Of a stretch of DNA of 64,000 bases, positions 5,813-48,059 are shown in pieces (position 1 is the first letter of the stretch; every line of letters begins with the position of its first letter). This DNA comes from Nemertoderma westbladi (Eukaryota > Animalia > Xenacoelomorpha). The DNA is taken from the NCBI GenBank assembly GCA_032718475.1, contig JAUCBJ010006452.1, forward strand, positions 1 to 64,000. The letters are read 5' to 3'. The translations under genes were made by a program, and so were the position numbers. Below the pieces are notes generated by a model that saw only the letters and a program-made list of their open reading frames with translations, did not search any database and had not been told where the DNA came from.

Positions 5813-5880
5813 GTTACTAAATAACAACTGCTGCCCTAGCCTAATAGACTCAGATACCACCAGCCACCAACAGACAAAAG

Positions 5881-19341: not shown

Positions 19342-20548
19342 TGTTCGCGCTTTCAGACCTTTGGCAGTTTAACCCGCCAAATTATGATGTCTTCTAGATA
19401 TTAAATCGCTTTTTAGCCTATGACAAGTATTTGATTCACTACACTAGTCGAAACCAATCTGTGCGCGATCATTCACCCGCTGGATATACCCGGGGGATTG
19501 GGTTCGACGGTTTAATCTTATTGCTATGTAAGCCTAACGTATTATTCGACTGACAGTATTATATAATCTCTGACAATATTATTCACCTTCGGGGAATATT
19601 AACAGTTCCTTTAGGACGTGGCGCTCTATCCATATAAACAGAGTTATGACTTAAACTACTCACAACGATATGGCTTAATTATAATTCACATATATGGCGC
19701 ATTCTTTAGGAAATGCTTCTTTAACAGACTCACTCATACACAATGCTGCACAATACTGCACATTAATCCGCCGATCTTCACTGATTTTAGTCACATATAA
19801 AAGGAACACCGACTGACTCATGTAGGGTCTATCAAATAACATTAGATTCACTTCAAACCACTTTAACATAAGTCACAATCGATATATGTAACCCTTCTCT
19901 CTTACCTTCGGTATATCAAGAATATTGGGTTTCGGGGTTGTTTCTCGTTATTCCAAATATAATAATTCATCCACAAATATAATGAATAACCGACAGCAAA
20001 GCAGTAATGTTAAGTTAAGTTGCACAGTATGGGCCAATTAACCAGTTTGTTTTGAGTTAAGACAATCAGCAATTAGTTTGCGAGTGATTCGTTAGTTAAA
20101 GGATATATGTCCTTATAATTAAACCTACTAGTGTGAAGCTAAAAAGCATAAAAGCACAAAACACTACAAAGCCGTTCTTTCGTGGCTTTGAAAAACTCGT
20201 GACTACTACTCTATACGAGGATACCAACTACCCTTATTCCACGAAGCTCCCGTTCAACACAGAGAAAGAGCAGTGAGATAGGAAAATTTCAGTTCAGTAG
20301 CTCTGTGATAGGTCAAAATCAAAGCTAACTCAAATTCTATTGGGAGATACAAAAACAGGGCTATGACGCAACCTCCCTAGGCTGGTTGTCCGATTAAACA
20401 GAGCCCAGTTACCTGCTTACAGCAAATCAGCCAATAAGCTGGTAGCTTGCACTATTTTAGTTATAGATCCCCTTTAGAGTATTCTAGCGACCGGGGGGGA
20501 ACTGGCCAGCAAAGCAAACGAACCAGTTATCCCACAAAAGCTTTTACA
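19342..20548 (-). repeat. 3' LTR of B1
   Basis: Near-identical to 36694-37900; TG..CA termini. Confidence 0.97.
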
Positions 20549-20626
20549 CCGCTCCCAGAAAATGGGATTTAAGTCTATAAAATATACAAAATTACAGTTT
20601 CTAAAATATAAAAATACTCTAAACAG

Positions 20627-23600
20627 TTAGTCTTTCTTGCGCGGACGGCGTTTACGCAGTTTCTTGAGGCTAGCAAGAGTCCTTTTCTCTTTGGGGCGAG
20701 CCACTTTATGAGGAGGGCTGTAGCTCCTAGGTGAAGGGTGCAATACAATTGCATCAGAAGGTGTAGGGTTACGATCGGTATACCCGCCGGTCGAAGTACC
20801 TGGTTGATTAATATCAACCTCAGTGGAGCGAGGTCTAACGGTCTCTAGAGCGCGTCTCAGGACAGCAGCTCCTACGGGTCCCTGACGGGTCGTCTGGACA
20901 CTAGCGGTGGGTGGACCGTGAGTGGTAAGGAACTTTCGCGGTTTAATGGTTCTCTCCAGCTTGCGTTCTCGGGTTTGATATTCATATGGGCGCCGAGATA
21001 CTTCCTGGAGTTCAGGATGCGAGTTCACAAAAATGTCGCCATACTCAGGGTCCTGACGGATAAAATTGATCAGGTGATATGTAGTTATATCATTAGGGTT
21101 GACGTTTCTAAGGTATTTTCTGACAAACTTGGTGGAAATACACTCACCAACACGCTTCATTAACTCGTAACTGGGTACGCATGTTTTCTGTTCAATCGAC
21201 GCAAATAGGTAAGGATGGAACTCGTAAACTCCCTCGTAAGCTCGTCCAGGGTAATAGCGATGTCTGGATTCGCAATGTAAATCTGCGTTTGCTTCCCAAG
21301 CTCGAATGTATCGCAGGGTGATCATTTCGTCTACGCTCTCTAAATCGCGATTAAAGGGACAATTGTAACTTTCATGTCCTTTAAGTTGACAGTAGTGACA
21401 TTGAGTCATAAATTGTGGGCAGAAGGCAAAAATATGAGAGTTATTAAGTCTGCAATAAGCACAATATATTTCCATCATCGGTTGTTCGAGGAAATAGGAG
21501 CAAGGTGCGTTGGAGTCGAGAGGAGTGAAGTGGTCTCTCGATGCGCATAATCGACAACGTTTTCGAGAAACGTAGTTGGCGTGTCGATAATCGTACGCTG
21601 TGAGACGTTGTGGACCTTGATACCACTCTATGACATAATCATTGTCACTGCTCCGGGAAGCTGTAGGCTGAATCGCTTCTGATTCCAAGCATACTGGCTC
21701 ATCCTCCAGCTGCATAGACGAAGTGGGTGCGTCTGTTTCCGTAAGTGGACCCACTGTCTGTATTTCCACGACAGAATAACCTATAGGTATTCGAGGTCTT
21801 TGTATAACCGATGAATGTAAGTTCTGTATACAAATTTCTTGAAAAACGGCAAATCCAGCGCTACTCAGTTTCTCAGCAGCTGAGTCTCTCAGACTGAGTT
21901 TGGTCAGCGCGCGGTCCTTGAACTGACTATCAACGTTACGGAACGGAGTCAGGAAGCGCCGGAAACATTCAAAACGTATAAACTTATTGTGTTCGTCTAA
22001 CTTGGCGAGTTTAGTTCCAAGTATCAATGGGTGAGCGCGTATGGTACGACTGCACACATCGGCTAGCCAACCGGCAAGTGCTGCGTTTTCAAAGATCGTG
22101 CATATAGCTAAGGAAGGACGAAGTGGAACACTCATAAAGCTATACACGGCACCAGGCGCAGTTAATGGTCCATCGAAATATAAACGAGAGTAATGATCTC
22201 CATATACTTGCTGGTAATTGATAGGATTTCCAACCTTGAAATTCCAACCATATTCTTGAAAGGCAAGATGTCCGATGGATGTCCGTTGTACTTTAGTAAT
22301 GCCGCAGGGGGTATTGGCATACATAGTGCGAAAGAAACCTCGGCCTTCGGCCCAAGGAGCAATCAGCTGAGTATCAACGAAAGGGTATGGAATGTTCTCC
22401 ATATTCCGGAAGTCGTTTTGGAGGTCTCCATAAACAGCTGAGCCGATTTTTAGAATTCTTTCGTTAAACAACATTTCGAGTACAGGTTGGGGTAACATTG
22501 ATCCATCGATACCCATGGCCGGTTTGCGCTCGGTGTCGGTGACGTAACGCTGCGCGAGCTCGAATTGTCCATGTCAAAGTTTCTTTTGTATCTCCATAAG
22601 AGTTTCAAAAGAATAATCAATCACGTCGGAACACGCTCGAGTGAATACGTGGGTAGAACCAGCAAGTCCTCGTATATGTATCATTCGCGTGGTTCCTAAT
22701 TCTCCCACCGGAACGCTACCTTTGTTGTCATAAGTAACAACGCCATACATCTCGATAACGTTAAGAGTCTCGTTCCATTCTTTAGTGGCGTTTTCGAGAG
22801 TCATTCCCACTGGATGCCATAAAGTAGCGCACTCATTAGCATTGGGTAAATCTCTATACTTTAAGCATTGTGTAGTATAGGTTTCCACATCTCCATATCT
22901 TTTTACTCTTTCTTCCTCGAATAACACGTCAAGATTCCAGTGCACTAATCGAGTTTTAATGAATCCATCAAGATTGTACGGAGGTGATGTTTCTTTCTCT
23001 ATTCTAGAAATATTATACGGTTTTCGAAATGAGTTTAATTTAACTAGCTGATCTAGATGTTTTTGTAGTTGTTCGAGTTCGACAAGATCGAGAGGATTGA
23101 TTAATGGTAGGAACCTCAGACTATGCGTAGGATCTTCCGGTTTCACCATGTAATATTGCTTCAAATTGACGTAATAAGGGTGATCCTTAATTCCATAAAA
23201 TGAGTCCGGCAAAGGTCTAGCGCGTATGTTAACATCGTGCACCATGCGACGGACAAGATCCGCTCTATTGTCCGGAGGCTCAACAAGTACGCCATCGACA
23301 CGAGCAGCCTCGACGGGTGGACGTTGTAGCATGGGAGCGTCAGCAACGAGCTCGTGAGATCTGAGATCAGTATTAACCGGTTGAGGCTGTACCGTAGCAA
23401 AGAGCTTGTCTTTAAACTGAGGAACCATCAAGGGGTGGAGGATCGTTTTGGAATAGAGATCCGTCACTAGAATTTGAACTTCTGGTTGGGCTAAAGCTGC
23501 TTCTTCCCTCTCAGTCAGCTCCATATGTCTCTCCTCGAGCTGATTTTCCTCCGCTTGTTGTTGCAAGCGCTCGTCCAGGAATTCCTGTAAAGAGTAGGTT

Positions 23601-24719
23601 CGTCCACGTTCTATGTCCTCCTCTAGATTTTGTATTTCTCTATCGAACTGGGGTAAAGCTAGTTCTTTCACCGCTTGGACTTGTTGTTGCAATTTACGTT
23701 TCTCCAAGCAATCGTAAGTTCCTTTTCCAATTTTCTGCCGAATAGCGTCTAATGCATTTCGTATCACGCTCTCTTCGACTTCTGTAACAGGTTGGATCGG
23801 AGGAAGGCCAGGACGGTTGTAGGGGTTAAACGGTGATATTAGATGACCGCGTCCTAGTCCAGCGAGGTAAGGTTGGCGAATAGCAAACAAACCCACTACC
23901 GGAGTGCCACCAATCAACTGTTCAGGTAACACTAGATCTTTGAACAGTGAGTACAGTTCGGGAGGATCCGTAATACTATTAGGATCTAGAGTTTGAGGTA
24001 TCACTTGGGAATGGGGAGGTCTGACCGAGTATTCCGGAACTCTGATCATGGGTTTATTCAATGATCGCTTAAGGCGCGCGACCGTAGGTGATACGTCGAA
24101 AAGGTTACGCTCGAAACTCCCATAAGTATATCGTGTAAAACTGTGTTTAGCACAACGTCTCCGAGGATGTTTATGCCTTTCGATTTGCTGGTTAGGTCTA
24201 GGGCATTCATCACAGTAATACCAAAGACGCACATCTTGAAGGGGAAAAGCGGGTGATCGCTCTCCAGTTTTACAATATTCCTCCATCTGTTCGAAGCTAT
24301 CTGGAACGACAGGTAGCACGTTTATCAGGTTCTTCAACGTCTTCTCTTTCGAGTTTGTTTCGAATAGAGTTCTCGTGTTCTATTCTCGATTTATCGTTTC
24401 GACTCCGCTGGGTATGATATTTAAATAAAACCATTTCCCTTTTGGTGTCTACATCGTCCGTATCGTGTAAATCGATAGGGTGACCAGTAGTCAAGAAGTC
24501 CATATACATACCATTACGATGCGTATAGCGAGCCGTGAACTTTCTATAATCCAATTCACGCGTAAGTTGCTCCTGGGACATTGGCGGTTCGATATAACAA
24601 CCATTGTCCTCCGTAGTAGTTGGATCAGCGTCGCCGCGTATCAAGCTATCAACAAACGCTTGAAAAGGTAGAGTATATCTCTCCCTGATACCAAGATCAT
24701 CTTCTATTAATTCAGTCAT
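20627..24719 (-). CDS. Accessory ORF of B1: DEDDy (WRN/EXD-like) 3'-5' exonuclease-like domain plus three zinc knuckles; one in-frame TGA and one frame offset
   Basis: ORFs 22574-24337 and 20627-22516 share a frame with a single TGA between them; 24297-24719 is offset by +1. Motifs GVVTYDNKG, LPQPVLEMLFNERILKIGSAVYGD, FVDTQLIA, SIGHLA, PLT...Y; knuckles CRLCASRDH, CAYC..H..C, CHYCQLKGHESYNC. Confidence 0.8.
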
Positions 24720-26351
24720 ATCTGCTATACGAGTTCACCAATATTATAATGAGTTTATATATTGTTAGGCGAGCGGGCGTCGCTGCCTATTTCTCCCGTG
24801 CCCCCAGACAGTAAGAGATTCTCAGCGCCGATGTACCGCTGTAGCTGTACTTTCGCCAACGACGTAGCTGTACAACGACAACGATAACCGGCACAAGTCA
24901 CTCCACTGTCCGTCCCAAAGGCTTAGATGTACTTCAGGTTTTCCTTGGAGAGTTAGGTTACTTTCACGATTGCGACTAGCTACTGTAAACACACTTTAGC
25001 AGTAACATTCACCTATAAACTCACAAATACCACACAACTTGTCACAACTACACACATTCGGGCCATTTGTCCGTTAGTCAATGCCTTCCAGAATGTCACT
25101 GTATTGTTATGTTTCCTTGGATACTAGCAGTGCACTATTTATTCCCTATGCTATTCAATGGGACAAGCTTTCTATTGTTCTTTTAACTCAATTCTAATTC
25201 TAGCGTGGTTTTTGCTATGTGACATTATGTAAAGCTAGCGGTAGAATTAGGGTAATTCCAATGCATACAGATCTGGGATGTTATTTAATAGTAATTCTTT
25301 AATAGTCAATGTCCTGTTTTATACATGACTTTATGAATTTTATCGGCTATTGACTATGTTTGGGAGACTTTCATACACGCATACGCATAATAATATAAAT
25401 CTCCGCTCCCTTGATCTATTAATTAATGGAATTTTGGGAATGTTATAAATTGCGTAAAATGGCAATTTATTAAATTCATTAAAAGACATGAATTTAAATT
25501 TATTCCCTGAAATTTTATTATTTGATAATTAAATTGACATATTTTGATTCCAGAACATCCTTAATTCTATGGAAATTGTCCTTTTAAGAATATCGGTAAA
25601 TGCGACGATATCTTAATTGACTAGAATTGTTGAAGGATCTGAATTTTACAGATTTTGACTTATTAGATTTGCAAATATTAAATAATTAATATTTGAGATG
25701 GGCACCGATTTATTCCAGAACTTGTCTGGGGACGTTAACCACTGATTCTATAATTTGTCTTTCAAGTATATCGGTGGGTGCCACGATATCTTAATCGACT
25801 AGAATTACAGATGGTCAAAGGGTTTAACAGATTTATTTTGCGTTATACGCTACTGTTAAAGGGACATCACGCTACTATATGTATTATTTAATATACGGTA
25901 TGAGAGCAATATCGCACGAAGCAATGTCAGTGTGAAGAGGCAAGTCGTTTCCAAGGTCTACCCAGAGCTTGGTTTAGCCGAGACACGAGGATCTGAACTT
26001 TGCATTCCTAATACTCTGCCTACCAATAATACTTAAATATAGTAGTGGCTTTATTGTACTTTAATAAGTACGGACATTTCATCTTACTGTAGTTACGTAT
26101 TTATAATATAATACGGACAGTAAGGAAGAGAAAAAATAATTATTTCTTCGCCGTCTCACTAAATATAATATAAGTAATTACGTACGTAATAAACACGAAT
26201 ATATTGCACTATTCTACTAAATAATCGCTAAATAATATTCTACTAAATTAAATAAAACGATTATAATAAAATTACATAGTAATACATACATAAAATATAA
26301 AATAATAAAATAATATAAAATAATAGAGTCACACGCCCACTCCGAACGATA

Positions 26352-29300
26352 TTAAGTTGGGGAGCCCCTAGATGTCGGTTGAATTAGGGAAGTGGTCGTG
26401 GGAAGAGTTTCTTGCCTTCCATAGTTTCCGGAGAGCTCTCTGTCTCTTTCCAGTAAACATAAACGACCCACTGGGCGGTTGAGCTGTTGAGTCTCAAAGA
26501 CTATCCCTGGTTTCTTAAAGTTACGACGCATGACGACGAGTTCTACTGATCGCACTAAGCCATCGCTCGAGATATAAGTCTCGATGATTCGTCCTGTTTG
26601 CCATCGCTTACGTGGGAGATCGGGGTCCACAATAAGCACCATGTCTCCAGTGCTGACGTTTTCTTGCTGCGCAAACCACTTAGTTCGAAGTTGTAGAGTG
26701 GGCAGGTAATGTTTCTCGAAATGGTCAGCGAAATGACGGGATAGCAACTGCATAAGTTGCCAGGTTCGACGGCAGTACTCGTCTCCGTCGGTGATCTCCG
26801 ATTGTGGGAGCATGGCTACGGGCTTCTTCAGCAGAAAGTGCGCGGGTGTTAGCGCTTCCAGGGAATCAGGATTTGAAGAGACTGGCATAAGCGGTCTTTC
26901 GTTGAGATAGGCGGCGATTTCCTCCATTAACGTCCGCAATAATTCGTCGGTGAGATAAGCGCGACAAGGCACAACAAAGTGGAACGCAGTCTTCACGCTC
27001 CTAATCAATCTCTCCCAACTTCCTCCCCACCAAGGGGCGTCGGCGGCATTGAAGGTCCAGCTAGACGCTGTTATCTTTAGCTGATTGTCCACCTGTCTTC
27101 CGTTCCAGTCCTTTATGTAAGCTTGAATTTCGTTGTTGGCGCCAATGAAGTTCGTTCCCTTATCCGATCTCATCGTGTTACTGGTTCCGAAGCGAGCGAT
27201 CTGTCGTCGTAAACTCAACACGAAGCTGTTGGTGGATAGATCGTTTACCATATCGAGATGGATAGCTCTACAAGTCATACAAACGAAGATGACACACCAT
27301 CTTTTGACTATAGTCCAGGCACGATATACTTCAATAGGGCCAAATAAATCCACACCGGTATTAGTAAAGGGTGGTTCATAGAAGCTTACTCTTTCCCTAG
27401 GTAATTCTGCCTCTCGCTGTGTTAAAGGCCTACTGAATGCTTTCCTACAGGGTATGCAGTTCCTAAGAACTTGGTTCAGAGCCCTACGGGGTTTATAAAA
27501 ATAGTAGCGAGTTCGAATTTCGCTCAGAACTCTTTCTCTACCAGCATGGTACAGTTTGCTATGAACATCTACAATTATCTTGATTTGTATGTCAAGATTT
27601 CTAATGAGGATGGGAAACTTAGTGTCAAAGGATAATGGGGCGTTAGTTAGCCTACCTCCAACACGTATTAATCCATCTATCATGGTACTAGAGAAGCGAT
27701 CCCTTAAGCGCATCTGCGGATTTCTTAACAACAGGAAATACTTATCGGAATCCTTATAGCATTGTAGGAGTCTTAGCATCTGTTTGTTGGTTTCATCATG
27801 CTCCTGGTAACTGATCTTCTCCGTTAGAAACCTGTCGGTTATCTTGTACTTTGGAAGATCTTTAACAGCATGTACTCGTGCAGATGTTGATGGAGCATCA
27901 TCACTATTGGTCTTTGTCCCGGAGTAACGATGATGAAAACATCGTTTCAAATAAGTAACAGCTTTACAAAGCCGATTCCAGGAACTGTAGTGACGTATCG
28001 CTCTCTGCAAGAGAGGTGAGAGTCCTTGCGAGATATCTGGTATTCCAGATTTCCAATCCTTGTCACGGATTTCCAAGATTTCTTTGGTCGTAGCAGTGGG
28101 TTTCTGATCCAAAGCATCCTCTCCGGAAGTAAATAATACAGATAGATCAACCGCAGGTTTAAACAACTTCGATTTACTCGCTCGAGTTTTGGGTTTAACT
28201 TTCTCCGCTCCCTTGGCCTGTCTGATCTCTGCTGTTGTGAGATGGGGAGGCCATTCCTCTTCTTCTCGGTAGAGAAAGTCAGGTCCTCCTAACCATTCGG
28301 GAGTATTTACCAATTCCTTTGGAGTTGCTCCTCGGGAAGCGATATCCGCTGGATTAATCGTTCCGGGGCAATGTCTCCATTGATCCATCGTCGTGCGACT
28401 AAGTATGATGGCTACTCTGTTGGTAACGAAGACGCTGAACTGACAGACTTCATTGGTTATATACTCTAACACGAGTAAAGCGTCGGTCCAATAGACAGTT
28501 TTCTCTAAGGGATAGTCAATCTGTTCTGTTACATTCCGGCCGATGGCTGTAGCGTATAGAGCCGCCTTTAACTCCGCTCGAGGAACTTTCAACTTGTTGT
28601 TGATTAATGCCTTAGAAGTAACCAAGGCGACTTTGATTCCATCCGGAGTTTCCACTCTTAGATAGGCTACTATACCTATTCCCATATCGCTGGCGTCTCC
28701 AAACACATGGAGTTGATAGGAATACGTAGGGAGAACATGACCAAAATATGAACGGGAAATTATAAAATCCTCGATAGCAGGTAGGGAATCTTCCCATTTC
28801 ATCCACTTCTTCAATAATTCTCCCTTAAGTGGATCGTCCCATGAGTGGTTTTCAAGCCACATTTGTTGTACCAAACTACGAGCAATCAATATAACTGGGC
28901 TAATAAATCCCAATGGATCGAAATAAGTGCTCAGTATACTTAAGCAAATCCGTTTGGTTCGAACGGGATTATCTCGCTGTTTTAGTTGGAAAAACAGGAT
29001 ATCTCTCTCTGTGTCCCATTTCAAGCCGAGTGTCTTGGTTTCTGGCAGATCATCTTTGATCAAATCGAGATCTTTCGCTCCTCGATCTTCCGCAGGGATC
29101 GACTCCAGAAACTCACGGGAGTTGCTGGTGAATTTCGTTAATCTAAACCCACCTCTTTTTAAGCACTCTACCGTTCCTTTTGCGACCTCAATGGCTTCTT
29201 CAACTGATGGAAGGGACTTCAGATTGTCGTCCATGTATATGTCTCGCTTGATGTTGTCGATCACTTCCTTAGAGAAGGCCTCTCGGTTGTCTTCTGCAGT

Positions 29301-32300
29301 GGCACGCACTACTGAACAGGCGTTGGAAGGGCTTGAGATTATCCCAAAGGCCTGGATGGTCATCCAGTACTCCACCGGTTGCTGGTTGAGGTCTCCTTCG
29401 GGCCACCATAGAAATCGTAGGCTATCTCGATCCTTATCCAACACTTTGACTTGCAAGAACATGCCTTCTATATCGGAGGCGAAAGCAATCGAATATTGTC
29501 TCAATCTTAAAAGAATTCCCAACAAAGATTGAAGTAAGTTGGGTCCGGGTAACAATTCAGAGTTAAGGGATTGACCCATGTAAAGAGCGGAGCCATCAAA
29601 CACTACTCTCACTTCGTTTGGTTTACCGGGTTTAGGAACGTAATGGTGAGTTAAGTAATACGTTCTTTCAGTCACAGGTGTTTCTTCCGGTACCCTCTCC
29701 GCGTATCCCTTATTAATAAATTTTTCCAGCTGTGTTTGATACATTGCTTTAGCTGAAGAATTAGCCGTAAGGCGTCGATGGAGTTGCGCGATTCTTTTTT
29801 CCGCCAAAGGTCTATTATTGATGAACTTCGGTTCTCTCTTGCGGAAAGGTAAACCAACTTCATACCTACCTTGATCTTTGAGGAAACGTGTAGTTGTCTC
29901 TTGGATCTGCTTGGCCCTTTCCTCTTCCACCGATAATGCTTTATCGTAGGAATTGGGCTCTACCGCCTCTTGCGTAAAGAATCGGACAGCATGTTCATCT
30001 CGAGTCTTGGCATTATGACGCTCAATGACGTCATTTAACTCGTCGTTATAAGCTTCTTGTTCAGATGGATAAAGAAGTTGACATAAGTTCACTTGGTTTT
30101 GCCAAGCCTCGTTTTCCTTAAGGAGATCGATGATATTCTCCTCATCAAAAAGCTGGTGAATGTCGTCGTTATCTGAGGAGTATGGAGTTCCCTCAGTTAA
30201 ATCGTCTCCTTCACTAGTATCATCTTCCCATTCACTCACCTGGCAGACTCGCTCTTGCGGTAATCTTTCTCTGAGTGTTCTACGGGAAGGGCCAGTAAAG
30301 TACCAACCTACTCTAGTTCTTACCGCATAGGTCTGTAGTGGCTGCGGTTGAGCAGGCCGTTTCTCTAATGTCTCCAGCGCCTCATGCGCGTTTTGGCCGA
30401 TGAGTATTTGCACTCCAGGATAATCAGTCGGGAATCGAGGTATGTTAAGATGTTGGATGCTCTCATCCTCATCCCAATTATAAAGGTCTGCTTGAGTAGT
30501 AGCGAAGTTCTTTATAGCCACCATTTTCACTGACCTTATGCTATGTTCTCCTAGTTCGTCCTGGGGGGTGGACAACGCTCCTAAATAATAATCTGCTGTT
30601 ATTGTAGATTTCCAAACTTGCATGATTCCGGACATGTTTAGCTTGGTTCGGAACTTGGGTTGTCCATTGAATATGTCTTCGGCTAGTTCTTTATCAATGA
30701 ATGTTCCTGTGCTGCCGGAATCCAGGAGGGCGTTCACCACACAACTCCGTTCAGGCCCGTGTACCCTTACCTGCACCACAGGAAACTCTCGGATCCCTAC
30801 ATTGGAAGATGGCTCTTTCCAAGATGGTTGTCTTTCAGAAGTAGTTAGGGTTAGGTCGCTGTCTGTGTCTTTTTCATATGTGAGTGCTCGATACACTGCG
30901 GTATTTATCATGTAACAGGATTCGTTTTCGTCGGAGAACTCATCCGTGTAGAATCCTTCCATCTCAGATTGATCAGTGTCGTTCACATCACTGAATTGGA
31001 CATGTAGTTCGGAATCACTTACCTGATTCGGACTATTTCGCTCGAATTCAGCGTGCAACAAGATATGATGTTTCGCACCACACTTTGCACACCTTAGGTC
31101 AGAAAAACAGGTTCGCCGTTGGTGTCCTTGTCTGAGGCAATTATAACATAACCGCTTATCCCACATAACTTCACGTCTCTCAGTTAATGATTTCTTTAGA
31201 AATTCATCACACATATTCAAACGGTGGGTCCCGTCGCATAGCGCACATTTCGGTTTGATGTTACTTACCTTATTCTGAGTCACATTGTGTACACTCGCCT
31301 TTTCTTCGGGCTTTCTCACCTGAATTCTCTTGGGAGACGTAGGAGGAGTTTTTCTTACCTGTTCTCTCCTGTCATTTGTTCGAGACTTAAATTTACTCAC
31401 CTGATCTTTAGGCATTTTATTCACGTAATAAGATCTCTCAGTGTCCTTCCCGCTATCTTCTCCCTGAGAAGTCGGGCTTTCGCCGTCGTCTGTATAACAC
31501 ACTGGTGTTATCTTTCTCCTAGAGACGGGTTTTTCACTTACCTTGTTTTCCGGTGTCTTCTCTCTGGATTGCTTGAGGAGTTGCAATTTCACTTCTCCAT
31601 CCAGGAATGACATGAGATCAGCCATGGTAGGGTCTCGTCGCTGTTGTTCCATCATATATAGTACTTTCTTATCCCAGCGTGTGCCTACCCCACCTTTCGG
31701 TAAAGTAGAAGCCACAGCTCCAATGACCATAGAACTTTGGTATTCATGAGACTTACCTAACCAATCTAATTGTCTACAGATCTCTTGAATCTCATCGGAA
31801 AACTCTATTATCCCACTGCTGATGAACTTTCTGGGCGCTACTAATTTTGCATATAAATACTTGGCGATATTATTCCTATTACCATACCTGATGTTTAGTG
31901 TATCCCAAACTTGTCTTAATCCGTCTGGATGTCCAATAAACTTTAACGCCATTAATTTGGGAGATCCTTCCAAGCACTCGATGAGGAATCTAAGTTTCTC
32001 TCCATTATATAGGACAGAGTTCTGTATGTTATCTTTGTAATATTCATTAAAAGGTAACCATTTCATCTCATCTCCATTGAACTTGACGATCTCTCCCACC
32101 TTCACCGCTTGCCGGGCTTCGGTTCTAGCCATTTGACGCGTAAAACTTTCTTGGGCCATCGTGTTATTTAATATCGAGCTATCGGTATATAAATTTCTCG
32201 GATTATGATCAGTTCTATATGGGATATCATTATCAACAGGTCTATAATTACCCTTAATAGGGTTCACTATAGGAGTTTCTACTTCGCTAGCAGTATAAAT

Positions 32301-34427
32301 GCGTGTAGGCTCCACACCTTGCGCATGTGATACTTCAGACCTAACAGGTTGACATATTGTTACAAGGGGTGGTGGTATACCCCTTTGAATGTTCACTAAT
32401 TTATCGCGCTCTAGCGCGATACTTTGCTGCACTTCTTGCAACTCTAGTCTACTTTCCCTTACTGTGCCCTTAAATTGTTGAACAGTCTCCTGCATCTGCC
32501 CGAGCAGGAGATCCACCCCCCGCCGTCTCTCGTCCACCCATTCGACCGCCGAAGCGGGAGTCGCCAACGTTGTAGCGGGCGGACGAGGGACAACGGGCCA
32601 CAAATTATGAATGTTTCGCTCGGGGTCCAGGACCTGAACTGTCTCCTGGGCAGTTCTACGGGGCACAGGTAGCTTAGTGCTATGCAGAGGGAATTTAGAG
32701 GTAACTTCAGGGAGTACAGGTGTGTCTATCACCGAAGGGGTGATTTCGAGAACAGGCCTAATTATTTCAGGCTCATCTACTATAGTAGGGAGTCTTTCTA
32801 TTTTAATTATTTGGTCTGTGGGCTCTGTACTACCTAAATTGTTGTTATTTAGTTGCCTTCTAACAGCTGGAGGCAAATCAGGCAATTTCTGACGGTGGAA
32901 TGTTCTTTTACGTCTACTTAGACGAGATCTATTTCCCTTGCCTTTAGTATCAGTGGTATCGCCTTCCTCAGATGATGTATAACCCTGTCTTTTGGGAGTA
33001 GATCGACTCATCATCTGCATATTACTAGCTGTTAACTGTTTATTTATGCAGTCTTGATTCTCTTGAAGATTTTCCAACTCCAGTTGGGTGATCTCTTCCG
33101 CTGCTCTCCGTTCTGCTTCCGCCACCGCTGCCGCTTTTGCCTCTGCCGCTGCCGCCTTTGCCTTTACCTCGGCTTCTGCTGCTGCCGCTTTTGCCTCTGC
33201 CACGGCTTCTGCCAAGGTCGCTTTTCTTTCTGCCTCTGCCACGGCTGCTATCTTTCTGTCTTCTATACGTTTTTTCCTTACTTGTTCTTCCTTTTCTCTA
33301 GCGATGCGGAGTTGTTCATCGAATTTAGCTTGATTCGCCGCTAACCTATCTACATCTATTGCATCCAACACACGCTGGGCTCCTTCACTATTAGGGCTAA
33401 GTCCATCTAGCCTTCTCCTCAACTCTTCATCTCCCAAAAAACGCTGATAGTCGTCAATATAGATGTCAATGGCATCCCTCTTATGCGGTTTCTCTGCCGT
33501 CGCTTCACTTTCCGCTTGGAAAAAAGTAGCGTCCGTTGATTCTCCATGGGTTGAGCGCTCCTCCAACTGAGCTTTCCACTGAGCTGCTCCTTGAACCTGG
33601 CGATTCACTCGTTGAAACCAAGTCTTTACGGCAACTTGCAACGACGTGTCTTGTCTTCTTTTAGAAGCCTCTTCAAAGGCTGATAAGATTAGCCTAATTT
33701 GCAGAACTCTTTCTCTAACTTGATAAAGCAGCTGTCCCTGCTCTTGAGGTCCTTGAGGTTGTTGTAACAGTTGTTTTTCTACTCGCTCCATAGAGCTGAA
33801 GAATCCTTGTGCGTATCCGGCTGCAGACCTCTTCCATACAGCTGGATCGATGGTTTCCTTGGCTACTCCCATCCGGTGTATGTCTTCCCAGGCAGCTTCT
33901 GATAAATTAAACGGGAGTCCGGGTCCGGGGAAGTTCCATTGCAACTCGACAATAGACTTCAGTTCTTCCCTCGTGTATCCCGCATAACTATCTCTAGTTG
34001 ATCGTTGACTTCTCGCCCAATCGATCTGGTGTTCTTCCACCGCGATCAATAACCTAGTGAGCACGGCTGCAGGAAGGATGAGAAGGGGATCCGAATAAAC
34101 CGCATCCGTTATCTCTGCTCCGCACTCGGGTTTCAGCTCTACAGTATCCTCACTACTGGAGCTGTTGGGCCGCTGAGAAATAAGTTCCCGGCTCGCGGGT
34201 TTTCGCTGTTCCGCTGCTTCTTGGTCCCGCTTGACCTGAGCTCGAGTGCCTATGATAGACCTACGATGTTGGACTAGCCTAGGTTCGGTTATTACTACTG
34301 GAGGGATGACCTTCCTCACAGTGGGAGGTGAACTGGACTTACGACCAGACGGTTCTACATCTCTATCTGAGTCGCAGATCGTTACATCTAATAAACTGTC
34401 TGACAGGTTCTGCTTAGTATCAGACAT
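26352..34427 (-). CDS. gag-pol: BEL/Pao Gag-Pol polyprotein, intact (2691 aa)
   Basis: KFNGDEMKW gag core, triple BEL knuckle (CALC..H..C, CYNC..GH..C, CAKC..HH..LH), PR LLDSGS, RT YMDD, RNase H HVFGDAS/WTDA/NPAD, integrase GVDLFGP/SDKG/WERLI, in PR-RT-RH-IN order. Confidence 0.98.
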   Translation of the reverse strand: MSDTKQNLSDSLLDVTICDSDRDVEPSGRKSSSPPTVRKVIPPVVITEPRLVQHRRSIIGTRAQVKRDQEAAEQRKPASRELISQRPNSSSSEDTVELKPECGAEITDAVYSDPLLILPAAVLTRLLIAVEEHQIDWARSQRSTRDSYAGYTREELKSIVELQWNFPGPGLPFNLSEAAWEDIHRMGVAKETIDPAVWKRSAAGYAQGFFSSMERVEKQLLQQPQGPQEQGQLLYQVRERVLQIRLILSAFEEASKRRQDTSLQVAVKTWFQRVNRQVQGAAQWKAQLEERSTHGESTDATFFQAESEATAEKPHKRDAIDIYIDDYQRFLGDEELRRRLDGLSPNSEGAQRVLDAIDVDRLAANQAKFDEQLRIAREKEEQVRKKRIEDRKIAAVAEAERKATLAEAVAEAKAAAAEAEVKAKAAAAEAKAAAVAEAERRAAEEITQLELENLQENQDCINKQLTASNMQMMSRSTPKRQGYTSSEEGDTTDTKGKGNRSRLSRRKRTFHRQKLPDLPPAVRRQLNNNNLGSTEPTDQIIKIERLPTIVDEPEIIRPVLEITPSVIDTPVLPEVTSKFPLHSTKLPVPRRTAQETVQVLDPERNIHNLWPVVPRPPATTLATPASAVEWVDERRRGVDLLLGQMQETVQQFKGTVRESRLELQEVQQSIALERDKLVNIQRGIPPPLVTICQPVRSEVSHAQGVEPTRIYTASEVETPIVNPIKGNYRPVDNDIPYRTDHNPRNLYTDSSILNNTMAQESFTRQMARTEARQAVKVGEIVKFNGDEMKWLPFNEYYKDNIQNSVLYNGEKLRFLIECLEGSPKLMALKFIGHPDGLRQVWDTLNIRYGNRNNIAKYLYAKLVAPRKFISSGIIEFSDEIQEICRQLDWLGKSHEYQSSMVIGAVASTLPKGGVGTRWDKKVLYMMEQQRRDPTMADLMSFLDGEVKLQLLKQSREKTPENKVSEKPVSRRKITPVCYTDDGESPTSQGEDSGKDTERSYYVNKMPKDQVSKFKSRTNDRREQVRKTPPTSPKRIQVRKPEEKASVHNVTQNKVSNIKPKCALCDGTHRLNMCDEFLKKSLTERREVMWDKRLCYNCLRQGHQRRTCFSDLRCAKCGAKHHILLHAEFERNSPNQVSDSELHVQFSDVNDTDQSEMEGFYTDEFSDENESCYMINTAVYRALTYEKDTDSDLTLTTSERQPSWKEPSSNVGIREFPVVQVRVHGPERSCVVNALLDSGSTGTFIDKELAEDIFNGQPKFRTKLNMSGIMQVWKSTITADYYLGALSTPQDELGEHSIRSVKMVAIKNFATTQADLYNWDEDESIQHLNIPRFPTDYPGVQILIGQNAHEALETLEKRPAQPQPLQTYAVRTRVGWYFTGPSRRTLRERLPQERVCQVSEWEDDTSEGDDLTEGTPYSSDNDDIHQLFDEENIIDLLKENEAWQNQVNLCQLLYPSEQEAYNDELNDVIERHNAKTRDEHAVRFFTQEAVEPNSYDKALSVEEERAKQIQETTTRFLKDQGRYEVGLPFRKREPKFINNRPLAEKRIAQLHRRLTANSSAKAMYQTQLEKFINKGYAERVPEETPVTERTYYLTHHYVPKPGKPNEVRVVFDGSALYMGQSLNSELLPGPNLLQSLLGILLRLRQYSIAFASDIEGMFLQVKVLDKDRDSLRFLWWPEGDLNQQPVEYWMTIQAFGIISSPSNACSVVRATAEDNREAFSKEVIDNIKRDIYMDDNLKSLPSVEEAIEVAKGTVECLKRGGFRLTKFTSNSREFLESIPAEDRGAKDLDLIKDDLPETKTLGLKWDTERDILFFQLKQRDNPVRTKRICLSILSTYFDPLGFISPVILIARSLVQQMWLENHSWDDPLKGELLKKWMKWEDSLPAIEDFIISRSYFGHVLPTYSYQLHVFGDASDMGIGIVAYLRVETPDGIKVALVTSKALINNKLKVPRAELKAALYATAIGRNVTEQIDYPLEKTVYWTDALLVLEYITNEVCQFSVFVTNRVAIILSRTTMDQWRHCPGTINPADIASRGATPKELVNTPEWLGGPDFLYREEEEWPPHLTTAEIRQAKGAEKVKPKTRASKSKLFKPAVDLSVLFTSGEDALDQKPTATTKEILEIRDKDWKSGIPDISQGLSPLLQRAIRHYSSWNRLCKAVTYLKRCFHHRYSGTKTNSDDAPSTSARVHAVKDLPKYKITDRFLTEKISYQEHDETNKQMLRLLQCYKDSDKYFLLLRNPQMRLRDRFSSTMIDGLIRVGGRLTNAPLSFDTKFPILIRNLDIQIKIIVDVHSKLYHAGRERVLSEIRTRYYFYKPRRALNQVLRNCIPCRKAFSRPLTQREAELPRERVSFYEPPFTNTGVDLFGPIEVYRAWTIVKRWCVIFVCMTCRAIHLDMVNDLSTNSFVLSLRRQIARFGTSNTMRSDKGTNFIGANNEIQAYIKDWNGRQVDNQLKITASSWTFNAADAPWWGGSWERLIRSVKTAFHFVVPCRAYLTDELLRTLMEEIAAYLNERPLMPVSSNPDSLEALTPAHFLLKKPVAMLPQSEITDGDEYCRRTWQLMQLLSRHFADHFEKHYLPTLQLRTKWFAQQENVSTGDMVLIVDPDLPRKRWQTGRIIETYISSDGLVRSVELVVMRRNFKKPGIVFETQQLNRPVGRLCLLERDRELSGNYGRQETLPTTTSLIQPTSRGSPT

Positions 34428-35789
34428 GTTCGTGTGTACAGTTGAATGCCTACTGCTATATTACAGTCTGAGCAAGTCTAGTAATTCAGTATTAACTGCT
34501 AGCCTAGTAATTAATTACCGATACTGCTACTCAGTGCAGCGTGATATATATATAATATATTAGAATACCGGTATACTTATAGTATATATAACTATATAAG
34601 TATTATTACAGATACAGACTAGGTTTATCTCAGAATACCGGTATAATTTTAGCACAAATATATGAATATATAATAGGCCTATCGGTAATACCGGTATACA
34701 GCTTACAGTTTGTAGTATATATAATTCTGGACTAGAATTAAGTACAAGTACCGGTATAATTTCAGCCTAAATTTATAGAAATAAAGATAATAGGCCTATC
34801 GTAAATACCGGTATATCAATTATTTTAAATAATTGAATTTCTGTACTTTAGGGTTACTTGGTTACTCTACTTACTTTATTACCGTTATTTGAGCAGTAGT
34901 CCAACTGATATTGAGACCTAATGGTTGTATGGTAGGCCTACTATTTATAAATCGTTAGATTTGATTTACAATATATATATATACCCGTTTTAATGGGTTT
35001 TGTCAATGTTTGAAATAAATGTTATTATTTCTGGGGAGTAATCACTACACAAAGCGGTGCGCTTTCAGTGAAGTGTTACTTATAGGACACTAAAACAAAT
35101 AATACTAATTTACCTAAGTTACTTAATACTACAAATTACGTACGATTCGGTGGTGATTACAATCTCTAAATAAACACAAAATTTTACAAAAAACACGAAA
35201 CACGAATTTTCAGGGTAATTTTATAAGAAGTCTACAAACCAGCCTAACAAAGGGTTAGAATCTGGTTACTACAACGGACAGGGTACTACGGTATTTGAAA
35301 ATAATAAGTAGTAGTAAATACACTGCGTTGTCCAGATAGGAAAATACCACCGCCTGACGACCTATGGCCGTATCGCTATAGGTACTACGTTATGTATCAC
35401 GGAGTGTTCCTACCGAGAAGTTAATAGAGCTAATCGAATGTGCCTATCAACCACTTTACAACTCAAATATAATGCCTACAACAATTACTTTCGGAAAGCA
35501 CTGTACACTAAACCCTAAATTAGGTACGAGTACTTGTACAACAGATAATCAGTAGTTAAATATACTTGAACAGCTAAAAGAACCACGGCATCTGCTGGAG
35601 TAACCGATGCACAAAATCACCAGTCTTTACCTACGCCAAGCAGCCCGTGTAGTACCGGGGTTAATTTAACTATAACGGTATGTATAACAAACACAATTAC
35701 TGTAGGAACAAACTTTGGGAATATGAATGTTGCGAATAATCGCATAAACTCTGAATAATAAATATTACGCTACGCGTACAAACTACTCA

Positions 35790-36330
35790 AACAAAATGCA
35801 GACCAAATACCGACAGACTACTATCAAGCCTAAACAAACTATGGTATATGCAGACTCCGAAATGATTAGGTAGTATGCGTTCTAACCCAGTAGTACGACT
35901 TATTCTTTAATTGGGGGTTTACCTTACAGCATTGGCTGCCCCTACTTCCTAACCGTACTTAATCGGACAGGTGCTCTACACACACTACAATCCATTCAGA
36001 CCTAACAACAGCCAGACAACTATCCAGCCTACAAATTATCTAATAAATATTATACGCTACCTGTACAGACTTACACAAACAAAGTACAGACTAAACGATG
36101 GCAGACGACTCTCAAGCCTAAATAAACTACAGGACATGCAGACTCCGAAATGATTAGGTAGTATGCGTTCTAACCCAGTAGTACGACTTATTCTTTAGCT
36201 GGGGGTTTACCTTACAGCATTTGCTGCCCCTACTTCCTAACCGTACTTAATCGAACAGGTGCTCTACACGCACTGTAATCCATTCAGACCTAACAGCAAT
36301 CAGACAACAGCTCAGCCTACAAATTGTCTG
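35790..36330. repeat. ~290-bp tandem duplication in the 2.3-kb 5' leader of B1
   Basis: GCAGACTCCGAAATGATTAGGTAGTATGCGTTCTAACCC... at ~35850 and ~36138. Confidence 0.88.
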
Positions 36331-36693
36331 TACAATCTGATCAGGTTTACACGCCTTCTGTTCAATACTGGCCTACTAACAAATAAAACTGACAGAAATA
36401 AGTAAGCTCCAAAAGAAACAAGGGGTGTACAGTCCCTAATCTCTTAAACAGCCTACCGGTATACAACAATCAAGTCGAATAATACTAATGTACTTATACG
36501 GAAGTACCGGTTAGGACAGTTGGGCCTACGGACCTACAGAAGTACCGGTTCTGGAAGTTGGACCTACGGGCCTACGGCAGTACCGGTTCTGGCAGTTGGG
36601 CCTACTGACCTACTGAAGTACCGTTCAGGTTTACCGGTTGACCGGTACTTTCAACTTTATTGCTTACTGCAATAAAGAAGCTATATCCTTTAA

Positions 36694-37900
36694 TGTTCGC
36701 GCTTTCAGACCTTTGGCAGTTTAACCCGCCAAATTATGATGTCTTCTAGATATTAAATCGCTTTTTAGCCTATGACAAGTATTTGATTCACTACACTAGT
36801 CGAAACCAATCTGTGCGCGATCATTCACCCGCTGGATATACCCGGGGGATTGGGTTTGACGGTTTAATCTTATTGCTATGTAAGCCTAACGTATTATTCG
36901 ACTGACAGTATTATATAATCTCTGACAATATTATTCACCTTCGGGGAATATTAACAGTTCCTTTAGGACGTGGCGCTCTATCCATATAAACAGAGTTATG
37001 ACTTAAACTACTCACAACGATATGGCTTAATTATAATTCACATATATGGCGCATTCTTTAGGAAATGCTTCTTTAACAGACTCACTCATACACAATGCTG
37101 CACAATACTGCACACTAATCTGCCGATCTTCACTGATTTTAGTCACATATAAAAGGAACACCGACTGACTCATGTAGGGTCTATCAAATAACATTAGATT
37201 CACTTCAAACCACTTTAACATAAGTCACAATCGATATATGTAACCCTTCTCTCTTACCTTCGGTATATCAAGAATATTGGGTTTCGGGGTTGTTTCTCGT
37301 TATTCCAAATATAATAATTCATCCACAAATATAATGAATAACCGACAGCAAAGCAGTAATGTTAAGTTAAGTTGCACAGTATTGGCCAATTAACCAGTTT
37401 GTTTTGAGTTAAGACAATCAGCAATTAGTTTGCGAGTGATTCGTTAGTTAAAGGATATATGTCCTTATAATTAAACCTACTAGTGTGAAGCTAAAAAGCA
37501 TAAAAGCACAAAACACTACAAAGCCGTTCTTTCGTGGCTTTGAAAAACTCGTGACTACTACTCTATACGAGGATACCAACTACCCTTATTCCACGAAGCT
37601 CCCGTTCAACACAGAGAAAGAGCAGTGAGATAGGAAAATTTCAGTTCAGTAGCTCTGTGATAGGTCAAAATCAAAGCTAACTCAAATTCTATTGGGAGAT
37701 ACAAAAACAGGGCTATGACGCAACCTCCCTAGGCTGGTTGTCCGATTAAACAGAGCCCAGATACCTGCTTACAGCAAATCAGCCAATAAGCTGGTAGCTT
37801 GCACTATTTTAGTTATAGATCCCCTTTAGAGTATTCTAGCGACCGGGGGGGAACTGGCCAGCAAAGCAAACGAACCAGTTATCCCACAAAAGCTTTTACA
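36694..37900 (-). repeat. 5' LTR of B1
   Basis: Near-identical to 19342-20548. Confidence 0.97.
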
Positions 37901-38722
37901 TAAATCAACCTTATTTCCTGACATTAGGGGTTTTCTGAGAAGCTGATCACAAATATGAGACTAAAAAATATCATATTATCCAACTAAATTAATTTTTTTG
38001 GCATTTGTAAGTTTTATGCTACAGTTGTATTTTTCGTCCCACCAGAGAAGCACTAAAAACAAAAGTTTCATTACCACTAAACATTTTTAACGAGTAGTTG
38101 TATCATGCATGATCAGCGGCCTTGAAAACCAATATTACCCAAACAATGGGAAAATTTAACCGTATGAAATTTTTGCTACTTCTACTTTTAATCCTGGGGT
38201 ATCAGAAATACACCAAAAATTATGTTTGACGTACGAGAAACATTATTACAGTAATAAGTTTCATCGTGATCAGAGACCTCAAAAACCCATATATCTTCGG
38301 AATTATCAAACCAAATACAACATATTTTTGTTTTCTAACCAATAACGTATTAAAAAAGCCGGGCCAGATAAGAGTTTATATCTGAGATAGTCTGTTTTGG
38401 CACGTAAGAATGCCTAGAACTTCAGGTTAAACAACAAATTTATACATGCCAAAACAGACTAACTTTGAGATAGACTGTTTTGGCATATAAATGTCTAAGA
38501 AAACATAAAAGCAATTACGCTCTATCTCACATTACACTATGTAGATAGGAGTTTCAGTTAAAAATATGCTGTTCAAATAATTATATGACTATAACTTACC
38601 TAATGACATCATTTCACAGGATTTCCACCAATCAGGATTCAAATGACAAGCCTGGAATGTATTTTGCGTTTTTCTCAAAACTATGTAAAAATGAGATAGA
38701 CGGTTTTGGCATTTAAGGGCCG

Positions 38723-42545: not shown

Positions 42546-45500
42546 TGTTAGCTTATTCAATCCCGCTAACACCCCATAAAGTTAAGCCAATAAGCAATAT
42601 TGGGGGACATGAGATTGGGTAACAACCAACTCGTGTCACCCCAACAAAGTGGGAAGGAGAAGCACACAGTAAGGGTCAGGGGCCAAACCCCTAACAGAGA
42701 GAGAACAGGTGGAGTGAAGGGGAACACTCCAGAAGGCGCCAACAAGGGTATCAACCAATCAGAGGGGGGAAAGGCACCGATTGAGTACAGCAATAAGGCC
42801 ACCGTGCAATATAACTAGTGGGCAGTAATCATCTCACTCAGTTATCTCAGTATCATGTTGGTGCTAGTTAGGTTAGTTAGTTTAGCTAGGGAAGGACTGG
42901 GACTTTAATTACCGTTTCCCGCCTTCCGTGTACGACATCATATCACCTATATCTATATCTATATCTTATACCTGAACATTATACACAAGGAACGACACAA
43001 ACTCTTTCACTCTTCACACACGGCGGGGACACGTGAATTAACACCGGATAAACCGGGATCCTTCCCTGGATCCCGTCACAGTAATTAAATCAGAGCTGCC
43101 GCCCTAGTTGAATCCACTAGCTACCAGTGACTACCAGCCACCAATCCAAAGTTAAAGGAGATGAGTAGAGAAGGAGAGACGACACCGACGCGGACCCCGG
43201 ACGACAATCTAACGATCCGCGAGGCCGCGACCAGACAGTATACACCCACGACGCCGGACCCATCGATGACGGGCGATCCGGAAGTTCAGGATGAGGGGGG
43301 CCGTCTGGAGTCAGAGGTCGAGTCGAGAGGAGGGGAAGTCGAGTTAGAGGGAGAAAGAGACGAGTCGACACGCGACGACGATCACCGTGCCGATGCCGCC
43401 GGCCCGCCACAGGCTGAGGGCGACAGACGGCCCACCGGAATGGCGACGGCGGGGCCGCCGGTACGACGTTGGACCCGGAGAGACAGAGGAGAGGTCGGCG
43501 ACGAGGACGTCGGGGTTTCTGAGCAACTTCAACGGGCCTACATCGCGACCCGGAGACTACTAGAGGAGGCCAGAGGAGGGGCGACGATAGACGAGGTAAA
43601 ACTAAAAAAAGAACTAGGTGAGTCAAATAGGCATTTTAACTATTTAATGCGATTAGGACAGAGAGAAACGGCCAAAGAGAGAGCGAGAGGGGTCGCCAAG
43701 AAACTGTGTGACCTATGGGGGTGTAGGGATATGGGGCCTGGTGCAGTGTACATAGGGCCATACTTAGTCGGTGCCCAGGGTGTAAAATTAGTGGGTTGGA
43801 AGAGACCTGAGGAGGGCGAATCCGAGGCTGACCCCGAGGATTTGGTCTCGTCGGTCGGAGGGAGTTCTGGGAGGAGGGGGAAAGTTAGTGGGACGGGAAG
43901 GCGGATGGAATCCGTCACAACCGGTAAGTCTGCTACATCCTCCGCGAAAGGAAGACGGGTGAGAGAGATAAACGCCACGTACCATCTCGACCTAATAACG
44001 CAAGGTAATAGAGAAGTAAGTAGACGGTTAGAGGAGGGGAGAGTGCTGATAGAGAAGGAGATGGCACTGATTAGGGAGACAAGAGAGAGGGCCGAAAGGG
44101 CCGCGAGAAGCTTTAGGGAGTGTGAGGAAATAGAGAGGAAGGAACAAGAGGAGCGTGTGGCGGAACGTAAGGAGCGTGAGGCGAGAGAATAAAAGGAACG
44201 GAAAGAGCGTGAGGCGGAACGCAAAGAGCGTGAGGCGGAACGTAAGGAGTGTGAGGTGAGAGAGGAAAAGGAACGCAAGGAGCGTGAGGAGAGGCGAAGG
44301 GAGGGAGCTAGGAGAGTGGCAGAGTTGGCCGACCAGGACGCGCGGAAGTGTGAGGAGAGAATGGCAAAAGCGGAGCGAAAGCAGAAGGAATTGGAGAAAC
44401 AACAAAGTGGGATTATAGAGTACAAAGCTAGACACATGCGCAAATTGGAACTGGCGCAGATAGGGGCGCGTCTGAGAGCGGGGATGGCTCGAATATTTTC
44501 GAGGAGCCAAGGGCCATGGACACGTTTATTAATACCCCACTTACAGGGACCGCACGACAGACCCAAAACTGGTGTGACCGTACGGGCGGGGGGGGGGGGG
44601 GGGGGGGGGGGGTAATAATAATATTACCGTAGATGACGTTAATATTAATAATACTGTATTGAATTACTCTAACCAAATCTTTATTGCAGGAAGTACTTTA
44701 CCTAATAGTAATAATTTTATTTTAAATCCGAACAATTTAAATATTAACGTGCAAAATAATTCTAATAATGTAGTTATGCAGAATAACCCAAATAATTCAA
44801 ATAATAGCCCGAATTTGAATTTACAAAGTAACACAAATAATTTAAATAATAATCCGAATTTGAATTTACAAAATAATTTAAATAATGTTGTAACGCAAGA
44901 TAACGTTTTTAACTTTGGTGCACAAAATAATTTGGGTGAACTAGAGGATAATCACAGTGGTGTTATTGGTGTGGATGCGTCGGACGTACATAGCCCGGCG
45001 GGTGAGGGCCTGGTAGGCCACGTAGTCGGTAGGCCGGAAGCAGCGGGGTTGAGCCAACCCGAGGTAGGCCTGGTAGGCCTCGTAGATAGTAGGCCGGAAG
45101 CGGCGGGGTTGAGCCAACCCGAAGTCCAACCTGATCGTGCTAAAGACGCTAAACGCACCATACGAGCTCAACGCGTCCAACAACATCACCACGATAGCGC
45201 AGGCACTGCCGATCTGGCTGCGCAATAAGTGGAGGAGAGTCGGTTTCTCCACTCGAGATAGAAAGGGTGCGGAACCGGGTTTAGAAGAAATGTCGAGCTT
45301 CTTAAGCTACGAAGCTGAATTAATAACCAATCCAGTCTATAGCGAAGATAGCCTGGGAAAGGGATCAAAGACAGATTACCATAGACTGAAACCAGAGCAC
45401 AACGCTTCGAATGCATTACCAAAGCTCAGGCAATCACAGCCATATGCAGCAACCCAGGGGACTGCAAGTCCACAAGTAGCAGAAGGTAAGACCGGACAGG

Positions 45501-47961: not shown

Positions 47962-48059
47962 TGTTCAGAGGACAGTACTTTAATAATAATACTGTAGTTA
48001 GTTCTAAGTGTAGTTAGACCTTCTGGGGTTTTACAAATCTGCTTTGAGAACAAACTTAC

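Follow-up and report, generated by a model that had tools for sequence, protein, structure and literature searches.

The window, by which we mean the whole 64-kb stretch of DNA that was analysed, contains a full-length LTR retrotransposon, B1, with the following main features:

19342..37900, minus strand: B1, full-length LTR retrotransposon of 18.6 kb, defined by its LTR pair and TSD
36694..37900, minus strand: B1 5′ LTR, 1207 bp, TG...CA
19342..20548, minus strand: B1 3′ LTR, 1207 bp, with a short purine-rich tract before it
26352..34460, minus strand: B1 gag-pol frame, open, 2702 aa stop to stop, with DUF1759, Peptidase_A17, Integrase_H2C2 and DUF5641

Anatomy of B1 and its place in BEL/Pao

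Comparison of the two LTRs revealed 5 mismatches over 1207 bp, and a 5 bp TSD, TAAAT, was found at 19337-19341 and 37901-37905. The purine-rich tract preceding the 3′ LTR is also present in a second element of the window, B2. Because DUF1759, Peptidase_A17, Integrase_H2C2 and DUF5641 lie in one open frame, and in the order expected for BEL/Pao PR-RT-RH-IN, B1 is placed by its Gag and Pol in BEL/Pao (Belpaoviridae). The Pao family was present in the best 120 of 868 homologues of B1, with 34-44% identity to B1 over RT-RH; those named among the best 120 belong to sea urchins, corals, a mussel, amphioxus and a ribbon worm. The homologues searched included no close relative of B1. Judged by the LTR mismatches, the TSD and the open gag-pol, B1 is young and transposed recently, so that it would have had a working primer.

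According to ICTV, the Belpaoviridae have genomes of 4.2-10 kb, carry a site of 18 nt that binds host tRNA-Arg or tRNA-Gly, and are primed by host tRNA, and BEL/Pao replication is called 'poorly understood' (PMC8742986). The remark in an earlier, sequence-only reading of this DNA that BEL/Pao elements are generally described as tRNA-primed agrees with that account. B1 is similar to the ICTV description in domain content and order, in its 1.2 kb LTRs and in the purine tract before the 3′ LTR, but differs in having no tRNA site, a span of 18.6 kb and extra 3′ frames without a Pfam match.

The leader between the B1 LTR and gag is 2.2 kb long (36693-34428, minus strand); ACCGGT motifs are numerous in it and, besides short tandem repeats, a 288-bp stretch is duplicated (35784-36329). 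Translation of gag may require splicing from an LTR donor. Repeated CCHC-like Cys/His motifs were seen in the extra 3′ frames of B1 (24379-20627, minus strand) and of another element, A1 (13156-14667, plus strand). The similarity between these frames is weak (27%, E 5e-5); they have no env-like appearance and gave neither a Pfam family match nor a homologue; for ORF3, no homologues were found and the only lead was a weak one to CCHC (0.81). The extra frames of 601 aa and 648 aa in B1 share one reading frame, with one TGA between them. A short frame at 17342-17875 (minus strand) was judged by eye from its translation to be similar to a piece of a LINE (non-LTR) reverse transcriptase.

The primer-binding position and its complement in the LTR

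The sequences surrounding the end of the B1 5′ LTR, and their counterparts within the LTRs, are as follows:

36682..36693, minus strand: B1 primer-binding position, 12 nt adjoining the 5′ LTR, without TGG
37448..37459, minus strand: candidate self-primer, LTR 442-453, exact complement of 36693-36682, duplex predicted at -11.6 kcal/mol
20096..20107, minus strand: copy of the candidate self-primer 12-mer in the B1 3′ LTR
36712..36733, minus strand: predicted U5 hairpin of 8 bp adjoining the B1 LTR end, kept in B2
36655..36677, minus strand: perfect 9-bp hairpin directly 3′ of the primer-binding position, containing AATAAA

The sequence-only reading had stated that B1 lacks a tRNA primer-binding site at its 5′ LTR, and that the 12 nt abutting this LTR are exactly complementary to 37459-37448 and 20107-20096, with pairing from base +1. 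Both statements were borne out. The 18-nt site for a host tRNA 3′ end that ICTV lists is absent in B1, and the nearest TGG downstream of the 5′ LTR is at +283, with none within 282 nt. ARAGORN found no tRNA-like genes within the 64-kb window and Rfam gave no match in 19000-38200, which covers B1; neither search thus found an element-encoded tRNA-like primer. The pairing is 12/12 at offset 0, the site and its partner being 754 nt apart, and the 12-nt post-LTR complement of the element's own LTR is confirmed as real.

The 12-mer is 83% A + T and has only three matches with at most 1 mismatch in the window, namely its own position and one copy in each LTR. The expectation by composition for a 12-nt complement is 2.9e-4; a complement of 12 nt or longer was found at 4 of 16,115 internal control anchor positions, and none of 400 controls reached 12 nt when offsets of 0-5 and spliced forms were allowed. 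A spliced junction as a better B1 primer was rejected, as 8 variants brought no improvement on the contiguous 12 nt, and a helix prolonging the duplex was not supported, 154/200 flank shuffles being equally good. A partial second copy of the site (7 nt, at LTR 1061) lies within a local hairpin and was left uncounted. The 3′ base of the B1 primer would be A, while it is C in most relatives. Between B1 and B2 the U5 hairpin shows two one-sided changes and a two-sided change in 0/28 pairs, a comparison of two sequences only.

Corresponding sites were located in B2 and in a second family of the window, family A:

57885..57896, minus strand: aligned site in the B2 3′ LTR (57126-58395), 8/12 bases identical to B1, with its partner beyond the window
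5277-15889, plus strand: element A1, TSD TTGGT, 5′ LTR at 5277-5812, LTRs near-identical
5813..5821, plus strand: A1 post-LTR bases, 8/9 pairing with 5625-5633 in the A1 5′ LTR, duplex predicted at -4.1 kcal/mol
43081..43089, plus strand: A2 post-LTR bases, 9/9 pairing with 42904-42912 (LTR 359-367), the A2 5′ LTR being at 42546-43080

Most of pol is missing from B2 (57126-64000). The B2 site, found where the earlier reading had put it (57896-57885), contains an 11-nt near-palindrome with 5-bp arms around one base; by its sequence it could pair with its own bases or with those of another genome copy, which the B1 site cannot. A1 and A2 both have BEL-type Gag and protease. A2 retains part of RT, 34% identical to that of B1, and no match to RT, RH or IN was found in A1; from their gene content, A1 and B2 look non-autonomous. 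A 36/37-bp-unit tandem array lies directly before the A2 5′ LTR (40710-42546) and again where the A2 RT breaks off (47220-47975).

Neither A1 nor A2 has a TGG within 200 nt of the LTR. For the 9-nt complement of A2 the expectation is 0.002 and 0/400 controls were as good, whereas A1 alone is not significant (168/400 controls as good). At the aligned site, A1 and A2 differ by one compensatory T-A to C-G change and by one pair broken in A1 at position 3; a single compensatory change between two sequences is weak evidence of covariation. Both elements also have LTR sequence upstream of the site that is able to pair with the leader, giving a long imperfect duplex (6/200 and 15/200 flank shuffles as good), and a spliced junction was rejected for either element as it brought no gain over contiguous pairing. 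TATAAC and TCAGTT are found 30-31 nt apart in family A, about 60 nt upstream of the site.

Candidate signals for transcription and splicing in the B1 LTR are listed below:

37764..37817, minus strand: TATAACTA, candidate upstream promoter, with an A at +30 and, after it, a sequence like a splice donor; not conserved in B2
37491..37507, minus strand: acceptor-like pyrimidine tract and AG, ending 32 nt upstream of the 12-mer; the B2 counterpart is 33 nt upstream of its site
37435..37469, minus strand: TATAAG (37469) and TCACT (A at 37437), candidate start at LTR 464, which would exclude the 12-mer from the RNA 5′ end
37252..37260, minus strand: splice-donor-like site within the LTR (LTR 643/644), also in B2
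36863..36917, minus strand: TATATAAT (LTR 984) and polyA-like hexamers (LTR 1027-1038; AATAAA in B2), likely the R 3′ end and a fourth start candidate

Four start candidates were thus recognised in B1, at about LTR 114, at 441-443 (the site itself), at 464 and at about 1015. The first follows TATAACTA at LTR 84, the same octamer as in A2, with a donor at LTR 136 and an acceptor at LTR 410. The last follows TATATAAT, which is canonical, kept in B2 and located 43 nt ahead of the polyA hexamers; by these polyA-like hexamers, R of B1 is likely to extend to about LTR 1050. If transcription started at 464 or about 1015, the 12-mer would therefore be confined to U3.

The sequence-only reading had itself raised the caveat that a TATAA/TCACT pair could place the 12-mer just upstream of the start. 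The pair is indeed present, with 32 nt between TATAAG and the A of TCACT, but the start that it would mark is doubtful: TATAAG is a non-canonical TATA, B2 has TATAG without a matching TCACT at this position, and there are three other candidates. In Tf2, a downstream start yields a primer-less RNA beside the full-length RNA (PMC5341516). Because Tf2 makes both RNAs, a downstream start need not be the sole start, and by analogy a start at LTR 464 could coexist with one further upstream. The predicted probability of the B1 duplex depends on the RNA 5′ end, being 0.88-0.98 for LTR 430-445, 0.32 for 426 and 0 for 115-420. Folding thus leans toward a start close to the site, long-range folding being unreliable.

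Complements in relatives of B1

In a first set of relatives, B1 was aligned with 50 of the 120 listed homologues, and 79 loci were retrieved from metagenome contigs. LTR ends could be fixed in 13 of the 79, in which both LTR copies cover the LTR end; 9 loci had the LTR start only and 57 no usable LTR pair. Complements were sought at offsets 0-5 after the LTR, in contiguous and GT-AG spliced forms. A 10-15-nt complement was found in 9/13 loci with fixed ends; for the first 10 loci the count was 8/10, located 0-4 nt after the LTR, with 0-1 of 400 controls each. The complement is contiguous in L061 and L068, and runs across a GT-AG intron with a donor-like site and pyrimidine tract in L002, L004, L019, L040, L050 and L051; L009 has 11 nt across a junction, its end being set where the LTR copies diverge. 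L060 and L011 start with TGG and have no complement, L044 gave 6 nt by script although the junction of L051 can be seen in it by eye, and L074 gave 7 nt (8-9 with looser filters), its LTRs being only about 90% alike.

For the start-only loci the best of 11-32 candidate ends was taken, with no formal null: 11 nt in L005, L020 and L033, 10 nt in L013, L014 and L015, and at most 8 nt in L003, L006 and L052. L019 and L020 are of the same family, as are L014 and L015. L013 (2523-2933) has a TGG at the start of its binding site, yet a 10-nt complement ending in CCA is found inside its LTR, and its sequence makes it a possible intermediate or double case between tRNA priming and self-priming.

A canonical TATA is located upstream of the primer start in 4/12 relative LTRs, at 31 nt in L002, which is the Tf1 geometry, and at 122-135 nt in L004, L050 and L061; it is found only elsewhere in 2/12 and not at all in 6/12, and a polyA hexamer lies downstream in 7/12. 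In relatives the primer site frequently falls some 90-190 nt into the predicted R or straddles a splice junction; a primer made up of the first 11 nt, exactly as in Tf1, would thus not be needed. No relatives were found in viral contigs; a 19-nt LTR-end motif in one viral contig showed no further likeness and was taken as chance.

A second set was held out and analysed with the same settings. It comprised 46 loci (L081-L126) of BEL/Pao sequence in assemblies labelled bacteria or archaea, most likely contamination by host-animal DNA, and 10 of them had an LTR-like pair around pol. L096, L112 and the second rows of L081, L088, L090, L092, L105, L115 and L118 were left out as not flanking pol or without LTR termini. 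Among the non-TGG elements, 3/5 carry an 11-nt complement (L081, L084 and L088; 0-2 of 300 controls), rising to 4/5 after end correction: L092 gave 7 nt, then 11 (2/300 controls) with its end moved 3 nt and looser filters. The fifth, L082, gave 8 nt (19/300 controls) and, when read by eye, 9/10 over a splice junction, position 3 being mismatched just as it is in A1. The TGG elements L105, L107, L115, L118 and L125 gave 0-8 nt, all in the control range, and in both sets together none of 7 TGG-type elements with fixed ends has a complement of at least 9 nt. Scans from the LTR start only gave at most 9 nt in 6/8 loci of this set, with no formal null. A run of ARAGORN over 26 loci detected no tRNA.

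Two sister families, L081 and L084, show two compensatory changes: two of the last three exon bases are different, and so are the two corresponding bases of the binding site. Both have TATA boxes more than 200 nt upstream. Across both sets, the complement is formed only across a GT-AG LTR intron, of 67-451 nt, in L002, L004, L009, L019, L040, L050, L051, L081, L084 and L092. Because most of the relatives' complements exist only after splicing of the LTR intron, the pairing would act at the RNA level. For this intron to be inherited, it must persist in the copy at the 3′ end of the RNA.

A tree built quickly from 27 RT rows, with L100 and L125 out (segment too short), split five distant TGG elements from the part that holds B1, A2 and the elements with a self-complement (SH-aLRT 95). 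The TGG-starting L060, L011 and L013 were placed among the self-complementary elements; B1 and A2 are long branches, of unsure placement. On the results of the two sets and the tree, the trait is common in the part of BEL/Pao to which B1 belongs and absent where a tRNA-type site is present, L013 being a possible double case. The family-level sequence evidence, which comes with controls, is strong, and together with the second family in the window it supports the self-priming reading of B1 that had been offered from the sequence alone.

Probable self-priming of B1 and its wider meaning

Within gypsy, the Tf1/sushi and Tcn1 groups are described as self-priming, and for TAR copia the same is predicted (PMC6317226, PMC4600332, PMC3601003, PMC6934838). 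In Tf1, RNase H is described as cutting between nt 11 and 12 (PMC7175516, PMC4600332). B1 shares with Tf1/Tf2 (S. pombe), Tj1 (S. japonicus) and the Tf1/sushi and Tcn1 groups, as described, the absence of a tRNA site and an 11-12-nt LTR-complementary primer-binding position abutting the LTR; the U5 stem-loop beside the binding site in Tf1-type systems may have a counterpart in the predicted 8-bp hairpin. The Tf1 primer is the first 11 nt of the RNA, whereas B1 has four candidate starts and its relatives often have internal or spliced sites. Tf1/sushi elements have a Ty3/gypsy chromovirus Pol and B1 a BEL/Pao Gag and Pol; B1 is thus no member of the Tf1/sushi group, though it likely works like Tf1. 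For the TAR lineage of plant Ty1/copia (Houba, Osr-1), self-priming was predicted by a rule of at least 10 bp, 0-5 bp after the LTR (PMC6317226). B1 falls within this rule (12 nt, offset 0) and A2 (9 nt) just short of it; TAR is of the plant copia superfamily, and the accessible text of the same paper describes no splice-junction primer, unlike what is seen in relatives of B1.

A literature search, mostly of open-access text, found no report of BEL/Pao self-priming; Repbase and most subscription journals were outside it and may hold an earlier remark. C. elegans Cer7 is said to use an element-encoded primer, which the literature search did not confirm. A search by term found no mention of primers in the available text of the Sinbad and BEL/Pao survey papers (PMC554778, PMC3118150), and PMC13524379, in the part available, treats tRNA sites in gypsy elements.

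We consider it likely that B1 primes reverse transcription with its own RNA, using a 5′ segment that ends at LTR 453, is cut 3′ of 453 and is extended. The site (LTR 442-453) would be transcribed from the 5′ LTR and lie in the 5′ part of the RNA, and this segment would pair with the primer-binding position. A cut 3′ of LTR 453, probably by the B1 RNase H by analogy with Tf1, would leave a 3′-OH, from which the B1 reverse transcriptase would copy U5 and R back to the cut. The resulting strong-stop DNA, LTR 454-1207, would then jump to the 3′ R. Directly observed are the anatomy of B1, the LTR complement, how seldom chance produces one, and the return of the pattern in relatives with other letters. 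Against this reading stand the TATAAG/TCACT pair and TATATAAT, either of which would put the site in U3, the duplex probability of 0 for starts at LTR 115-420, the finding of no extra flanking pairing in B1, the 754 nt between site and partner, the A at the primer 3′ end, the long branches of B1 and A2, the failure to find a close relative of B1 among the homologues searched, and the recent movement of A1 with its weak 8/9 duplex of -4.1 kcal/mol.

Self-priming might alternatively take place at the 3′ end, which we regard as unlikely. Transcription would then start downstream of the 12-mer (37437 or about LTR 1015), the only RNA copy of the 12-mer would be in the 3′ U3, and a second, uncut genome copy would be needed for strand transfer, as the cut would part the 3′ R from the template. 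The 32-nt spacing of TATAAG and TCACT in B1, near the 30-31 nt from TATA to TCAGTT in family A, speaks for such a start, as does the conservation in B2 of TATATAAT ahead of the polyA hexamers. B2 lacks a matching TCACT, and in relatives the TATA is upstream of the primer start (4/12) and the polyA hexamer downstream (7/12), which argues the other way. The kept donor-like site at LTR 643 suggests a start further upstream, and the downstream start of Tf2 is described as coexisting with full-length RNA (PMC5341516).

It is equally improbable that the pairing is structural or regulatory, serving in genome circularisation or as a packaging or translation switch, with priming by another, unseen route. 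The long imperfect LTR-leader duplex of family A and the position-3 mismatches in A1 and, by eye, in L082 would fit such a role. Yet the pairing is always 0-5 nt from the LTR end, the required place of a primer 3′ end, is lacking from all 7 TGG-type elements whose ends are fixed, and occurs where no other primer site is present.

A little less probable still is a separate small RNA primer, such as a fragment of a host tRNA, some other RNA of the host or a piRNA derived from the LTR, with the LTR site as its mimic or source. Half-tRNA priming is described in copia lineages (PMC6317226), and L013 combines a TGG start with its 10-nt complement. However, each of more than 12 unrelated primer-site sequences is matched by the LTR of its own element, in many cases only once an intron is spliced out, and host RNAs would not follow such a pattern. 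Neither a tRNA-like gene in the window nor an Rfam match in B1 was found. A chance complement, for which the A + T richness of the 12-mer and the examination of several elements might speak, is very improbable and largely refuted by the controls (2.5e-4 to 2.9e-4) and by the recurrence in family A and relatives.

Returning to self-priming, we incline slightly towards a wider reading, in which a broad animal clade of BEL/Pao self-primes, having evolved this independently of Tf1. The primer would be an internal leader segment, mostly spliced from an LTR intron, splicing would gate replication, and lineages would change from one primer type (tRNA, contiguous or spliced) to another. Taken furthest, for B1 this reading would put the site in U3, with one genome copy cut to prime its partner. 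If true, BEL/Pao would be the third LTR superfamily with self-priming, after gypsy (Tf1/sushi) and copia (TAR). The primer would not have to consist of the RNA's first bases, and the spliced primers of relatives would make the initiation of reverse transcription depend on splicing by the host. Annotation tools requiring a tRNA site would miss self-priming BEL/Pao elements. Such elements would, if the reading is true, be independent of the host tRNA supply and of silencing by 3′ tRNA fragments.
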